DNA of 14,643 bases, from positions 1 through 14,643 of the forward strand of contig WJMJ01000061.1 of NCBI GenBank assembly GCA_014728035.1, read 5' to 3'. Made by a program: the position numbers and the translations under genes. Within the stretch, counting starts at the first letter, position 1. Each line of letters opens with the position of its first letter. The notes under the pieces were generated by a model that was not told the origin of the DNA, did not search any database, and saw only the letters and a list, made by a program, of their open reading frames with translations. Below, one piece after another: positions 1-10,567 of the stretch. This DNA is from Promethearchaeota archaeon (GTDB taxonomy: Archaea; Asgardarchaeota; Thorarchaeia; Thorarchaeales; Thorarchaeaceae).

Positions 1-155
1 GGATGCTCTTTGATGTATTCTATTGGATCACCGAATATATCCTCCTCATCCTCGAATTCTGGAATTTCATCCTGTTCGAGGAAAATCCTATCTCCTACTT
101 CTAGGAGATATTCTTGATCATCTAGGATTACTTTGGATTCCCTAGTTACGATCAT
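1..155 (-). CDS. Hypothetical protein (runs off the window edge) with the shared 27-aa module at its N-terminus; putative head-internal protein
   Basis: Not in the ORF track. Manual translation from ATG at 155: MIVTRESKVILDDQEYLLEVGDRIFLEQDEIPEFEDEEDIFGDPIEYIKEH..., open to position 1. A GAGAGGA Shine-Dalgarno lies just upstream. Residues 2-28 match the module in the three upstream genes. Confidence 0.85.
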   Translation of the reverse strand, partial: MIVTRESKVILDDQEYLLEVGDRIFLEQDEIPEFEDEEDIFGDPIEYIKEH

Positions 156-190: not shown

Positions 191-568
191 TCAACCATTT
201 TGCTCGACACATATTTTGTCGCCCTTCTCAAGCATAAATCTCTTGCCATCGAGTTCGACCTCTACATCTTCTGATACCTGCAATAATTGCATGACTTCTT
301 TGCTACCCTCGTCATCAAATTCTGCTTCTTGAGGATCTAATATAGATAACAATGTACTAAATTCCGATGCATGGACTTTTTCTTCATCTGCAATATCCTG
401 CATAACCTTCTTTACACGATCATCTGTAGAAGCATCGGCAATTGCCTCATATAAATGAATCGCTTCATGTTCTGCGGCAATAGATTGCCGTATCGCCCGA
501 TATATTTCTCGTTGATTAAGGGGATGGTCAAATGATGTTATAACGGTGGGGTCAATGAATTGTGCCAT
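191..568 (-). CDS. Short ferritin-like protein (encapsulin-associated Flp/EncFtn, rubrerythrin-like half bundle) with C-terminal 27-aa module
   Basis: RAIRQSIAAEHEAIHLYEAIA...VMQDIADEEKVHASEF...LDPQE...EGSKEV carries the ExxAxxxY and EExxH di-iron ligand pattern of short ferritin-like proteins. The likely start is ATG 568, which overlaps the upstream TAA (TAATG), rather than the track's 589. Confidence 0.85.
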   Translation of the reverse strand: MAQFIDPTVITSFDHPLNQREIYRAIRQSIAAEHEAIHLYEAIADASTDDRVKKVMQDIADEEKVHASEFSTLLSILDPQEAEFDDEGSKEVMQLLQVSEDVEVELDGKRFMLEKGDKICVEQNG

Positions 569-1311
569 TACACACCCTTTACTTCCCACAGTGATTTGAC
601 TCTATTCACTAGATAAGTGCGTATAGCATCGTAAGCCACTGAATATTCCTCATCATTGACATCAATTTCTGGATATAGAGTCTCGACGGCCATCATGCCT
701 TCCATCATGTCTTCCACTGCAGGCATCTCTTCAACTATATCATCAGCCATCTCATTGAGTTCTTTTATTTGATTTTCATCAAACTTGACTTCACCCAATT
801 TGAGGTTATAAGCTTCAGTCTGGACTGGGCATTTTTCACCAGCAGCTTTTCGCCTACCTATATTGGATTTGCTGCGACGATAGCTTCCCTTATATGGTCC
901 AGTACCATCGCGTTTCTTTCTCTGCCCATGTCCTTCTATAACAACCTTATCACCCTTCTCAAGCAGATACTTTTTGCCATCCAATTCAATTTCTGTATCT
1001 TCTGACACCTGATATTGAGATGTCAGTTTGCCGAATCCTAATTTACCAACATCCAACTTTTTCTTACCAACTCCATATTTGATCTTCTTTTTCATCTTAC
1101 CCTCGCTTATCCTCGGAAGTCGACCATAAGATTCTTCCATGTCGCCAAGAAATTCTGAGCCACGCTTTATAATATTCTTAAGATCATATTTAACATTTTT
1201 TAATGCTATTTCATCGCCCTTTTCTAATTCAATCAATATGTCTTGTGCTCTACGAGCCATAATATCTATTGTTGCTCGTGCCAATGCAAGATCTTTAACT
1301 TCTTTGTGCAT
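568..1311 (-). CDS. Hypothetical protein with internal 27-aa module flanked by Lys/Arg-rich segments; putative head core/internal protein
   Basis: ORF track 568..1323. ATG at 1311, just after the upstream TGA with a GGTGG SD, is the more likely start. Module at 931-1011, basic tracts on both sides, acidic C-terminus. Confidence 0.75.
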   Translation of the reverse strand: MHKEVKDLALARATIDIMARRAQDILIELEKGDEIALKNVKYDLKNIIKRGSEFLGDMEESYGRLPRISEGKMKKKIKYGVGKKKLDVGKLGFGKLTSQYQVSEDTEIELDGKKYLLEKGDKVVIEGHGQRKKRDGTGPYKGSYRRSKSNIGRRKAAGEKCPVQTEAYNLKLGEVKFDENQIKELNEMADDIVEEMPAVEDMMEGMMAVETLYPEIDVNDEEYSVAYDAIRTYLVNRVKSLWEVKGV

Positions 1312-1312
1312 T

Positions 1313-2128
1313 TCAAACACCACCTTTAGCAGCCATTGCTGCAGCTGCGCCCATCGTCATCAATTCCTGCGTCTTGTCAGGATCATTCTCATACACAATG
1401 ACATATTTATAAAGGGGTTTTCCAGATGCTGCTCCAAATTCCGCTCTAACTGGGACCATGTCTGGTGGTGCTACCCTATTTGACGTCAATGCTCTTCTGA
1501 TGATACTAATCAATTTATTTGCTGCTGATTGTGTCTTCAACAAGAACGGCGATTTAGCATATGTCACCAATGCATCATCTTTTATCTCATCAAAATCATG
1601 TGACACTTCATGTCCATCATCGTCCTGGGGCTTATCACCTTTATCCTTCTGGATCTTATCACCACGTTGTATTTCCCATATCCATTGCTTAAGCATTTCT
1701 CTCTGGTGCTGGGGGTCACTAACATCCTGGATATCATTTATCTTATCTTGAATCTCATCCTCAGACCACCCACCATACTTCTTTGCGAAACTTGCGATCG
1801 TTTTAAACGGAATCTGGCCTGATTGTCCGACAGCTGGCTGTTCCATTAATATTCTATCGCCAGATTCCAGCATTAGTTTATAATTATCAGCATAGATGGT
1901 TGTATCTTCTAAGATATCTACACCCATACCATCCACAAATATTTCTATAACGTCACAGCCTTCTCTTATCAATATCTCATTGGGACGATGTGTGTGGACC
2001 TCACACGTCTGAATAAGATCACAAAATGCATCAAATATGGTGGGGCATATCAATGACAATTTATCACCATTCTCATATAGATATGCTCCGCCACCAGTCT
2101 TAATGGTCACATCACGAGAGATTATCAT
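1313..2128 (-). CDS. Hypothetical protein with two copies of the 27-aa module; putative head-associated protein
   Basis: 271-aa ORF starting immediately after the protease stop. Module copies at residues 2-28 (IISRDVTIKTGGGAYLYENGDKLSLIC) and 71-97 (DILEDTTIYADNYKLMLESGDRILMEQ). Confidence 0.75.
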   Translation of the reverse strand: MIISRDVTIKTGGGAYLYENGDKLSLICPTIFDAFCDLIQTCEVHTHRPNEILIREGCDVIEIFVDGMGVDILEDTTIYADNYKLMLESGDRILMEQPAVGQSGQIPFKTIASFAKKYGGWSEDEIQDKINDIQDVSDPQHQREMLKQWIWEIQRGDKIQKDKGDKPQDDDGHEVSHDFDEIKDDALVTYAKSPFLLKTQSAANKLISIIRRALTSNRVAPPDMVPVRAEFGAASGKPLYKYVIVYENDPDKTQELMTMGAAAAMAAKGGV

Positions 2129-2129
2129 T

Positions 2130-2813
2130 TTATGCCCTCAATGAACGATGAATTTCCTGGATAAGTTGAGCTTCAGCCTTACTCTTTGCCTCTGAACACA
2201 ATTTGATTTGCTTCGATTCCATCACGCTCAATTGAGCTTCAGTGACTGATGGCTCTGCAACAACGTCCCATGTAACAAAACGAAAACCAGGCTGAACATC
2301 ATATCCTTCATCCATGGTATCTTCTATTGTGACTGGGATCATATCACCCACACCTCTGGATGAGATGCCAATTCGCACATCGGCTTCTACCAATGCTTCA
2401 AGCATCTTTCCGCATGGCATTTCGGTAAGAACTTCCAATTCACCATATACTTTCTTTGACTCCATCCAAAGTTTGGTGACGATATGGCTCACTCTATCCA
2501 AATGTATCTTGGCATCTGAGCTATGGTCAAGTTCGCCTAATACCCTACGATGGTTTACAGATTCGGAAATAGCACCGAGGGCGTCATTAATAATGTCCAT
2601 ACTGTAACGACGTTTATTCTCATTAAAACAGTCAGCCTTCTGGAATACACCAGTAAGACGTAATCTTTTTACTTCCTGTCCCACCTTGTTTTCGACAACC
2701 ACATGTTTGGAATCAAGGATGTCGAATACTTGCTCCTCTTTGAGAAGATGCATACCATTAGGAATTTCACCAGTCTTGGATACTTCACCCCAATTAACAG
2801 CTGTCGTGACCAT
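2130..2813 (-). CDS. Prohead core protein protease, T4 gp21-like (herpes assemblin-fold His-Ser-Asp protease)
   Basis: Family motifs LTGVFQKAD..NENKRRYS, LGELDH, SHI, GISSRGVG, TWDVVAEPS. Strong GGAGG SD upstream. Confidence 0.95.
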   Translation of the reverse strand: MVTTAVNWGEVSKTGEIPNGMHLLKEEQVFDILDSKHVVVENKVGQEVKRLRLTGVFQKADCFNENKRRYSMDIINDALGAISESVNHRRVLGELDHSSDAKIHLDRVSHIVTKLWMESKKVYGELEVLTEMPCGKMLEALVEADVRIGISSRGVGDMIPVTIEDTMDEGYDVQPGFRFVTWDVVAEPSVTEAQLSVMESKQIKLCSEAKSKAEAQLIQEIHRSLRA

Positions 2814-7867: not shown

Positions 7868-10567
7868 CTACTTCATCTTGCGGAAGGGACCCTTGCCAAA
7901 CTTAGGCTTGGTTGATTTTGCAGGTGCTTTAACTGTAGTTGAGGACGGGTTTGACATTTTCTTCACAGACGGTTTCTGATTCTTAGAAGAGCCATCCGCC
8001 CATTTACGAGGTGCATCATCATTTTTATATGAAGACTTGGCAGGATCCATTACGTCATTGTCTTCTATAACTGCTTCCTCATCAGACGTTTTCGATTCTT
8101 CAACTTCTTCCTCGTCCTCTTCCATCTCGACTTCACCAACATCCATTTCTACTTCACCAATATCCATCCCTTCATCAGGTGATTCAATTGGTGGCATGGG
8201 CGGGACATGCTCTTCATCGTCCATGTTGGCAAATACTGCATCAATTGCAGACGAAAGATTATCCTCATCTGACACCACCACTGCGACTTCCTCATTCTTG
8301 GTGGACTTATCCTTGATTAAATCATATACACTAGCCCAGAATTCATTGTCGTCCTTATTGCTATTCACCGCAAACATTACCATGCCACGACCTTCTTCAT
8401 TGGTATTATCAAAGAATTTTGCAACATCGTGCGGTGTAGTTTGATCTTCAAGAGACTTTTGAGTACTAAGATCCATACGCTCTCTAAGATCACCCTTTTC
8501 AACTTTATCAGGCCAATCACCCTCTTCCTTCATAAGTGACTTCTTGGTTGTTGTGGGCCTCGTTCTTTTGCGTGCATTAGTTGGTGATTTGCGCTGGGCT
8601 TCTGATACCGCATTGCCATCGCTTTCTTTATCCTCACAGTGCTCTCCATCTTCACATTCTTCTTCGCCATCTTCGCCATCTTCTGCATCGTCTGAATCAG
8701 ATTCTGAATCATCACCTTCGTTCACCAATGCACCATATTGCTCAGCAATCTCAGCAATATTATCATCATATGAATATGGATCATCAGCACTCTCTTCAAT
8801 ACTGGGCATTAGAGTTCTAAACTGCTCCGCAAGAACGTCTTCATTGAGTGCCTCGCAGCGTGCGATATATCGATCAATGTCTTCTGCCACCTTACCAATA
8901 CCATGCGTGGCAATGTAAACATTAATTGATTCACACCACGTTGAGAATTCTTCCTTCAAAGCATCCTTATCCATACTCTCAACTGGTGTCATTGGTTTGG
9001 ATATATCTTCTGCAGCTGCTAATTCTTCCTCTTCCTCCTCTTCCTCTTCACCACCAAATTCCAAATCTAGATCACTATCTATCTCTTCCTCTTCACCTTC
9101 AGCGCCCTCAATTCCCTCATCACCAAGATCTTCACCACCGGTTTCCAGTTCCCCCAAATCAGGTTCGAGATCTAATCCCGGCTCGCCCAAATCGGGTATG
9201 CCGCCGCCACCGCCACCAAGATCTGGCTCCTCAATATCGCCAACTTCACCCATGCCTTCCTCGCCAGCACCGATTGCATCAAAATCAATTTCTGGTGTGG
9301 CCCCTGCTTGATCAAAACTTCCAAGATCAATGATGGAGCTATCTAGTGAGGCAAGTAACTCAGCTGCTTCAGACATGGCAGAATCATCGGCAGTGTCCTC
9401 ATTGGCCAAACGAGCCATAAGCTCATCAACCTGTAACACTGATTCATCATCACCACCAACTTCGTTCTCCAAAGTATTGCGAATTACGGACAACGAATTT
9501 AGAAATGCCTTTCTCTGAACATCCCTATCTTCAGTCATCACGTCCTGTAGGAATTTCATATAATCATCTTCGAAGTTATTTGCGGTGCGAAGTTTGTCCA
9601 CGCCCTCCAGGATAGGAGCACTACCGGCCATCTTGGCCGTCTTACCCCACGCTTCCAAGATATCATTCTTGTTGACACGCAAGTTACTACGGAATAATGT
9701 CAGAGCGGTGTGCTCACATAATACTGGATTATAATTGTTCTGTGTTGCCAAAGCATTGGAAACCAAATCTCTCATCTCATTTAGATTCAGCATGCAAAAT
9801 TCCTGATATTCACCAAGAAATTTTGCAGATTCGGTCACAGCTTCCTTGAGCTTGTCTTGGGAGACCAGCCCAGCCACATTCTTGCAGAATTTCTGGAAAG
9901 AAGTTGATTGGTATGCAGATTCAGCGACCAACCGCATCTTCTTGGCGATGAGCCGTCTACGATCCATTTCAGTGATGGGCAGTTTAATTTCAGTGCCATC
10001 ATGTAGGCTGGCGGATACAATATTACCATCCTTAACCTCGACCTTATCAGACAGGGCTTCAAGTATGGTGTTGATTATTTTGGCTTTATTATCTTCCGAT
10101 ACAACATCCTCAGCAATATTGATGCGACGTCGCATATTGTCCCTTGTTACCACATAGCCCTCATTAGTGGCTACTGTGGGACGGAAACGGCACATTTCCA
10201 GCTTCTTAAATGCAGATTCCGCTGACTTATCATTCTCTTCAGCTATTGCATCAATCAGATCACAGCATGCATTAGAGAAGACATGGCCCTTCTTCGACTC
10301 CTTGATCTGCACTTTGGAAATATCTGTGAGATGCACTTTGCCATTCTTTTTGGTGCGATCATGCTTGGCCATATAATATGACCCATTATCGACATCCTCA
10401 AATAACAAACTGTTGTTGTGCAAGGAGACTAGCCGATAATTCCGCCCAGCCCGTTCGCCCATCTTGCCAACCAGACCCTCAAACATAGTAATATTACTCT
10501 GGGCACCTTCATTGATGAACTTGATCACTTTACGTGCGTCTAATGTGACGGTTTTACTCATAGCCAT
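7868..10567 (-). CDS. Large acidic protein, putative prohead core/scaffold-like protein
   Basis: 899 aa: helical N-terminal half, very acidic low-complexity D/E/G-rich C-terminal half, basic tail. Many [ILV]-x-E tripeptides of the type cut by gp21-like proteases. AGGAG spacing favours the second ATG (10561). Function is inferred. Confidence 0.55.
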   Translation of the reverse strand: MAMSKTVTLDARKVIKFINEGAQSNITMFEGLVGKMGERAGRNYRLVSLHNNSLLFEDVDNGSYYMAKHDRTKKNGKVHLTDISKVQIKESKKGHVFSNACCDLIDAIAEENDKSAESAFKKLEMCRFRPTVATNEGYVVTRDNMRRRINIAEDVVSEDNKAKIINTILEALSDKVEVKDGNIVSASLHDGTEIKLPITEMDRRRLIAKKMRLVAESAYQSTSFQKFCKNVAGLVSQDKLKEAVTESAKFLGEYQEFCMLNLNEMRDLVSNALATQNNYNPVLCEHTALTLFRSNLRVNKNDILEAWGKTAKMAGSAPILEGVDKLRTANNFEDDYMKFLQDVMTEDRDVQRKAFLNSLSVIRNTLENEVGGDDESVLQVDELMARLANEDTADDSAMSEAAELLASLDSSIIDLGSFDQAGATPEIDFDAIGAGEEGMGEVGDIEEPDLGGGGGGIPDLGEPGLDLEPDLGELETGGEDLGDEGIEGAEGEEEEIDSDLDLEFGGEEEEEEEEELAAAEDISKPMTPVESMDKDALKEEFSTWCESINVYIATHGIGKVAEDIDRYIARCEALNEDVLAEQFRTLMPSIEESADDPYSYDDNIAEIAEQYGALVNEGDDSESDSDDAEDGEDGEEECEDGEHCEDKESDGNAVSEAQRKSPTNARKRTRPTTTKKSLMKEEGDWPDKVEKGDLRERMDLSTQKSLEDQTTPHDVAKFFDNTNEEGRGMVMFAVNSNKDDNEFWASVYDLIKDKSTKNEEVAVVVSDEDNLSSAIDAVFANMDDEEHVPPMPPIESPDEGMDIGEVEMDVGEVEMEEDEEEVEESKTSDEEAVIEDNDVMDPAKSSYKNDDAPRKWADGSSKNQKPSVKKMSNPSSTTVKAPAKSTKPKFGKGPFRKMK

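Follow-up and report, generated by a model that had tools for sequence, protein, structure and literature searches.

Encapsulin shells and the capsids of tailed phages share the HK97 fold. Each EncFtn protein is a half-ferritin of two helices. Two such chains pair at a di-iron site, and the known members assemble into decamers. The R. rubrum EncFtn decamer is ~130 kDa, assembly of the decamer is driven by metal binding, and EncFtn that lacks a shell does not store iron by itself (PMC5012862). As encapsulin cargo, EncFtns consist of a structured domain of ~95 aa followed by a C-terminal address element, for which the targeting-peptide consensus L/F-x-V/I-x-x-L/I has been published (PMC11202242). 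In P. furiosus, the EncFtn is fused to the shell instead. A comparable loading system is found in phage T4, where the CTS, an N-terminal propeptide of ~10 residues, is the only feature common to the internal proteins (PMC3012670, PMC9026906); through it, IPI-III, Alt and foreign proteins enter the scaffolding core, after which it is removed by cleavage (PMC3012670, PMC9026906, PMC9958956). The gp21-type proteases cleave after a Glu that is preceded by a short motif, and the propeptides often contain multiple sites (PMC9026906). Ferritin-superfamily proteins are encoded by phages as well: a Dps-like one was detected by proteomics in particles of phage G (PMC12484599), and ferritin-like proteins of the Dps type occur in Gratiaviridae and Lactobacillus phages (PMC8008677). 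A 2026 paper speculated that procapsids might co-assemble cargo-like enzymes and gave no natural example (PMC13669383). Our literature search found no publication on EncFtn-type proteins in phage head operons, nor on the 27-residue module described below.

The protein studied here (P0001) shares with the encapsulin-cargo EncFtns the two-helix half-ferritin with its short N-terminal helix, the E/Y/E-x-x-H ligands in identical spacing, and the layout of a ~95-aa domain followed by a putative C-terminal address element. However, it lacks the L/F-x-V/I-x-x-L/I peptide, and no shell gene was found nearby or in the bin. Its tail is a module common to phage head-operon proteins, its gene is located in a T4-like head operon, and its sequence falls in a separate viral cluster of the ferritin tree. 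Like the proteins of phage G, Gratiaviridae and Lactobacillus phages, it is a phage-encoded member of the ferritin superfamily; those are four-helix Dps or Mn-catalase types with no described address tag, whereas P0001 is an EncFtn half-ferritin with a modular tag.

The ferritin gene and its place in the head operon

The window, the whole 14,643-nucleotide stretch analysed, is the entire contig C27. The end of its minus strand and the start of the plus strand of contig C131 share 134 nt exactly; no other pair of phage contigs overlaps in this way. Read across this junction, the genes run from the protease through p271, p251, the ferritin, a module-repeat protein and a 250-aa coiled-coil scaffold to the Gp23 capsid protein. 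The features in the window are as follows:

2130-2813, minus strand: T4 gp21-type prohead core serine protease (Pfam Peptidase_S77, 4e-19; phrog_207 head maturation protease, 1.6e-40)
1313-2128, minus strand: p271, a conserved protein with two modules (about nt 2045-2125 and 1838-1918) and a conserved C-terminal domain
568-1323, minus strand: p251, with an internal module (about nt 931-1011) between basic stretches; its counterpart is a 291-aa protein of the related phage L020
191-568, minus strand: EncFtn-module gene (P0001), 125 aa plus stop, identified from the ORF, its translation, 22 homologues and family matches
284-568, minus strand: EncFtn-type half-ferritin domain, residues 1-95 of P0001, with helices 19-46, 50-77 and 79-95 and ligands E33, Y40, E63 and H66
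203-277, minus strand: C-terminal module of ~27 aa, predicted beta, about residues 98-122 of P0001, with a near-invariant LLExGD core (profile match 7e-14, alignments)
3-155, minus strand: 5' portion of a gene whose product has an N-terminal module (nt 72-152) and DUF4116-like repeats; the gene continues on C131 (1-756)

On C131, the 250-aa coiled-coil protein occupies the gp22 position and the capsid protein matched Gp23 at 2.4e-76. The ferritin gene is the fourth in a compact minus-strand run headed by the gp21-type prohead protease, and the third of four module-bearing genes between this protease and the gp22-like scaffold. Its stop codon lies at 193-191, and its ATG start codon at 568 overlaps the TAA of the preceding gene by one base (TAATG at 570-566), a shared base that makes translational coupling between the two genes plausible. 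No family was found for p251 in Pfam, PHROG or NCBIfam.

The initial annotation had described a ferritin-like domain of the Flp/EncFtn type with intact di-iron ligands, which was borne out by profile search, structure comparison and residue conservation. In Pfam, residues 1-95 matched Rubrerythrin (1.4e-7) and the EncFtn-like family PF22277 (27.7 bits, cut-off 27), and the NCBIfam matches were EncB_fam (3e-24) and TIGR04535 (3e-20). For the two NCBIfam models the bit scores fell under the curated cut-offs (85.3 versus 90 for NF058679; 72.2 versus 125 for TIGR04535) because the C-terminal model positions 99-117 are absent from P0001. When a profile of the 22 homologues was searched against the PDB, 7s8t (2.5e-20) and the P. 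furiosus EncFtn 5n5e were retrieved, together with 2e0z, in which the P. furiosus EncFtn is fused to its shell, and EncC and EncB of M. xanthus. The AF2 model of P0001 reached a pLDDT of 84.9, and the top 50 Foldseek matches to it were EncFtn chains without exception (50/50). The four ligands were invariant in two alignments, of 22 and 10 homologues, and their spacing (Glu, Tyr at +7, Glu at +30, His at +33) is also found among the ferroxidase residues E32/Y39/E62/H65 of R. rubrum (PMC5012862). Judged by these comparisons, residues 1-95 are a genuine and apparently functional EncFtn-type half-ferritin.

The best match in both sequence and structure was the P. furiosus fusion-FLP (5n5e, 2e0z; 5e-22 for 5n5e, TM 0.86 on the target, 38-40% identity). 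If P0001 docks in the phage head as proposed below, the two would be alike in that an EncFtn is tied to an HK97-fold particle without a targeting peptide. In contrast to the fusion, P0001 is not covalently joined to a shell protein, and the capsid protein here is of the gp23 type, from a DNA-packaging virus.

The family-wide EncFtn alignment stops at the conserved G88..E91 ('EG..EV'), beyond which the tails diverge. In P0001 the module (V98-E122) begins seven residues past E91, in agreement with the original observation that it follows closely on the EG..EV end of the ferritin domain. In the alignment, the homologues P0019 and P0020 carry C-terminal peptides of the TVGSL/TVGNL type, which fit the published targeting-peptide consensus (PMC11202242), and the gene of P0020, a cellular homologue 45% identical to P0001, has a Linocin_M18 shell gene 20 nt downstream. 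A targeting peptide of this consensus is absent from the C-terminus of P0001, where the phage module is found instead. The 117-position EncB_fam model aligned with P0020 over positions 1-117 (114 bits, over the cut-off) and with P0001 over positions 1-98 (85 bits, just under it), indicating that the targeting-peptide segment is the part replaced. The earlier view that the module takes the place of a cargo-loading peptide was thereby upheld by alignment to cellular homologues. The reported absence of a shell gene from the window was likewise confirmed and extended: no Linocin_M18/PF04454 encapsulin gene was detected among the window ORFs or in the 97.9%-complete, 173-contig bin, in a search in which the control genomes matched.

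A 27-residue module on unrelated phage proteins

Five copies of the module lie in the window, two in p271 and one each inside p251, at the C-terminus of the ferritin and at the N-terminus of the gene at 3-155. A profile built mostly from sequences of other phages matched P0001 at 7e-14. With this profile, 18 significant copies were found in 17 ORFs on contigs C27, C131, C118, C158, C160, C70 and C74, and no significant copy on the remaining 166 of the 173 bin contigs. When 1.84 billion representative proteins were searched exhaustively, 163 module clusters from public metagenomes were returned at E<=1e-3; 107 of the modules are at the extreme N-terminus, 17 at the extreme C-terminus and 37 internal. 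Most bearers are small, and outside the module their sequences are mutually unrelated; a few have DUF3008, DUF5661, Rubrerythrin or zinc-finger domains. No family covering the module itself was found when 148 module proteins were compared with Pfam and PHROGs, no counterpart was found by tblastn when a module was compared with 50,697 GenBank phages, and a search of the ESM Atlas with a consensus-like module brought up nothing beyond generic beta-strand look-alikes. The strength of the match in P0001, the confinement of the 18 copies to 7 of 173 contigs and the 163 clusters together indicate that the module is no chance repeat.

L-L-E-x-G-D is nearly invariant in the module alignments. For the module of P0001, AF2 predicted a hairpin (strands 102-106 and 109-113) at a pLDDT of about 72 and a further strand; for p271, modelled from seven sequences, the modules also appeared as hairpins, at a pLDDT of 56 that does not allow their packing to be resolved. 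A beta fold of the module is predicted with moderate or low confidence. Directly ahead of xGD, 142 of 151 modules have the motif (L/I/V/M/F)-x-E, and 65% have another within nine residues past GD, compared with 16% in the background.

Motifs of this kind could mean that the module is chiefly a recognition cassette or degron for the protease, which would time the removal or activation of its bearers and not serve as an address. Such a function would suit the very constant L-L-E and the second (L/I/V/M)-x-E that many modules have, as well as the very few cleavage determinants besides Glu of gp21-type enzymes (PMC9026906). However, 27 conserved residues with beta-strand periodicity far exceed the needs of a cleavage site, and the T4 precedent unites targeting and cleavage in one element, so that a protease function and docking can coexist. 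We regard a purely protease-directed cassette as very improbable.

The module had initially been taken for a terminal tail in the position of a cargo-loading peptide. This description holds for P0001 but not for proteins of sister phages with an EncFtn-module-(DUF5661)-C-domain architecture, in which the module is internal, between the EncFtn and further domains. The sister proteins P0002-4, P0171-3 and P0150 combine these parts in a single chain. In the bin, a module and C-domain are encoded by a separate gene (C118:826-1155, minus strand); the 'EncFtn-module' and 'module-C-domain' genes each retain a module copy, as if split at the module.

A family of at least eight paralogues carries the module at the N-terminus, encoded in the window (3-155, minus strand) and at C131:1-756, C118 (four copies), C158:38-568, C160:18-290 and C74:1305-1826. 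The module is followed by an acidic linker and by 4-7 repeats of ~27 aa with a weak match to DUF4116. At their 5' ends these genes hardly differ, and those ends fall at the limits of contigs; the family has probably fragmented the phage assembly.

The head genes of related phages were compared with those of the window. At L020/L022, where the capsid protein is 85% identical, the protease is followed by four module-bearing genes, a homologous scaffold and Gp23. These four genes encode an orthologue of the two-module p271 and proteins of 243 aa, 291 aa (internal module, like p251) and 124 aa; the module sites in L020 comprise one two-module gene, one internal and two N-terminal positions, and unrelated module proteins take the slot of the ferritin. 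Thus, every gene in the protease-scaffold interval carries the module in two phages, that of the window and that of L020/L022. At L019, the protease is again followed by a two-module gene, so that a p271-type two-module gene stands immediately after the protease in 3/3 contexts seen. At L023, where the capsid protein is 75% identical, the protease, scaffold and capsid genes are adjacent, and no module was found in the 21 kb searched around the head genes. Since no cassette was found in that interval despite the similarity of the capsid proteins, its distribution indicates an accessory, self-contained set that is dispensable for a capsid of this type. The module-free L023 further suggests that docking partners are more likely to be module or core proteins, notably p271, than the capsid shell or a specialised surface on it.

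The same comparison bears on whether the ferritin is instead a transient structural part of the core. A D5-symmetric EncFtn ring would then act as a building block or vertex-associated organiser and be degraded by the prohead protease at maturation, with metal needed only for ring assembly and iron chemistry secondary. Occupation of the slot by unrelated module proteins in L020 implies that the ferritin is not a conserved structural part, and the complete ferroxidase ligand set, with the Tyr, is invariant across the viral clade. These observations make a structural role quite unlikely in our view, although the gene sits in the T4 core-protein slot between the gp21 and gp22 genes, in T4 the proteins gp22, gp67 and gp68 of the core are broken down into peptides (PMC9958956), assembly of the EncFtn decamer is metal-driven (PMC5012862) and protease-type motifs are present in the module.

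EncFtn homologues were also found in other settings. P0002, the ferritin-module protein of another phage, is encoded among baseplate, neck and sheath genes. In the cultured Eggerthella phage LE2-3 (112 kb; L018, MW679026.1 51172-54018), an EncFtn-like segment of 43% identity (residues ~216-298) sits in a protein of 948 aa with the annotation 'ferritin-like superfamily protein', whose gene precedes the major capsid gene by three genes; LE2-3 could serve for experiments such as virion proteomics. In another huge-phage lineage (L005:10001-10357), an EncFtn homologue ends in a C-terminal amphipathic helix resembling the N-terminus of a neighbouring 260-aa protein (8575-9357; weak match, E=0.15), and this helix may be a second, helical address tag for the same cargo.

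Phage lineage and ancestry of the ferritin

The capsid protein (C131:1650-3203; homologues include P0178-P0296) has more than 1,100 homologue clusters at 70-85% identity, on contigs of up to 397 kb, and by this measure marks a very large clade of uncultured huge phages. Its nearest GenBank relative, at 39% identity, is encoded by LR756511, a 595-kb uncultured huge phage with neither the module nor an EncFtn. One copy of the capsid gene comes from an NCBI MAG that bears the name Candidatus Ranarchaeia archaeon, and the copy studied here lies in a Thorarchaeota bin; their presence in archaeal MAGs may reflect co-binning or a real archaeal host. A mini CRISPR-like array was observed at C131:9725-9970 (plus strand), with a GC-rich repeat of 29 nt in four identical copies and a fifth, degenerate one, and spacers of 26-36 nt. 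The spacers of this array had no match anywhere else in the bin, and the spacers of the bin had none in the phage contigs, so that no link to a host emerged from CRISPR spacers. The array repeat might point to the CRISPR type of the host.

The bin has an EncFtn-like gene of its own (C82:8911-9204, minus strand; locus L025), which encodes ~102 aa in a chromosomal context. Its synteny is kept in the same genus and family, the gene is present in 42 of 151 genomes of the phylum, and its LGIK/LGLE tail is similar to the targeting peptide of T. maritima.

A tree of the ferritin domain placed all viral-type sequences on one side of a bipartition with 92/86 support. On the opposite side were the Thorarchaeota genes including that of C82, another Asgard gene and the encapsulin-linked EncFtns. 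The suggestion that the phage had captured a host Flp was not supported as a recent event, as the phage EncFtns form their own cluster apart from the sampled cellular ones. The tree and the tails instead characterise the viral EncFtn as an established lineage with different tails in different phages. The Thorarchaeota bin was considered as the source of the phage gene and rejected, its C82 EncFtn being on the cellular side of the tree.

Proposed docking in the prohead core

The module resembles the T4 CTS in being a short conserved element on unrelated, fast-evolving and mostly small proteins, with a gp21-family protease encoded beside its genes and motifs ending in Glu at which it might be removed. 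Its sequence showed no likeness to the T4/IPIII CTS. Unlike the CTS, the module has 27 residues, is predicted to be beta, occurs at the N- or C-terminus or internally, and is also carried by the conserved core-slot proteins p271 and p251. Portability to foreign proteins is established for the CTS (PMC3012670, PMC9026906, PMC9958956). Because it is a portable element on unrelated small proteins, with a gp21-family protease nearby and motifs ending in Glu, we read it by analogy as a prohead-core docking element with the ferritin as one of its cargoes, and give this reading somewhat better than an even chance. As for the original idea that the ferritin was re-addressed to the phage head, the exchange of tags, the distribution of the new tag and the head-operon synteny speak for it, while the binding and packaging side is argued from the T4 CTS.

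Under this proposal, the module would dock its bearer in the prohead core, which within the gp23 shell forms together with the gp22-like scaffold and the gp21-type protease. The docking partners would most likely be other module proteins, and the two-module p271 is a possible hub. After assembly, the protease would cut (L/I/V/M)-x-E motifs within and just past the module and free the cargo, as T4 gp21 does on the CTS. The ferritin would be retained in the head, or at least be present in the prohead, and oxidise Fe(II) there, which would curb Fenton damage to the packaged DNA in a Dps-like manner. Its delivery by injection into the next host, as once suggested, is doubtful, since a folded EncFtn decamer would be too large for ejection through a tail; Dps-like action inside the head is more likely.

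Some findings count against this proposal. The internal module of the EncFtn-module-DUF5661 fusions does not suit a simple terminal address peptide. Module genes also occur distant from the head genes, as on C70 by NrdD and glycosyltransferases, a placement to be expected of a general interaction domain no less than of a head tag. C70, a 121-kb contig, is probably part of the same huge phage. At C70:54575-57394 (L014:2575-5394), an intein-interrupted NrdD adjoins two module-bearing genes, and the region also adjoins a run of glycosyl- and sulfotransferases.

Module genes beside NrdD and away from the head genes also lend themselves to a different explanation, in which the ferritin is a cytoplasmic auxiliary enzyme. 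It would buffer iron or oxidative stress for iron or radical enzymes of the phage, such as the anaerobic ribonucleotide reductase, the module would be a generic oligomerisation or adaptor domain without a link to the capsid, and the head-operon position would reflect late timing only. Phage Dps, Mn-catalase and ferritin genes are usually read as such host-stress auxiliaries (PMC8008677; bioRxiv 10.64898/2026.09.14.751636). Nevertheless, we consider this explanation unlikely, given that the module is on every protease-scaffold gene in two phages, that a two-module gene follows the protease in three contexts, and that the module stands at the exact site of the shell-targeting peptide in cellular cargo. 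The inability of shell-less EncFtn to store iron (PMC5012862) counts against it as well.

Extended to the clade, the docking proposal describes huge T4-like phages with plug-and-play cargo, in which module bearers would be built into the prohead core, possibly by pairing with p271, and the ferroxidase would be one cargo among others, the DNA-filled capsid doubling as an iron-detoxifying nanocompartment. We hold this wider picture tentatively, at a little short of an even chance. What is new here is the explicit exchange of a targeting peptide for the module, together with a large and well-defined tag family. The locus thereby offers a testable natural example of an encapsulin-cargo enzyme in a T4-type head operon with its address peptide swapped for a phage tag. 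The module also bears on a question in T4 biology, and being long, conserved and portable it is a better handle for structural work than the 10-residue CTS; in practical use, it could load enzymes into large phage heads. If the proposal is true, the locus would functionally connect the loading of encapsulin cargo with the assembly of virus heads in a living system, and the presence of a ferroxidase in the virion would point to damage by iron and peroxide as a real selective pressure on phage particles where habitats are anoxic and rich in iron.
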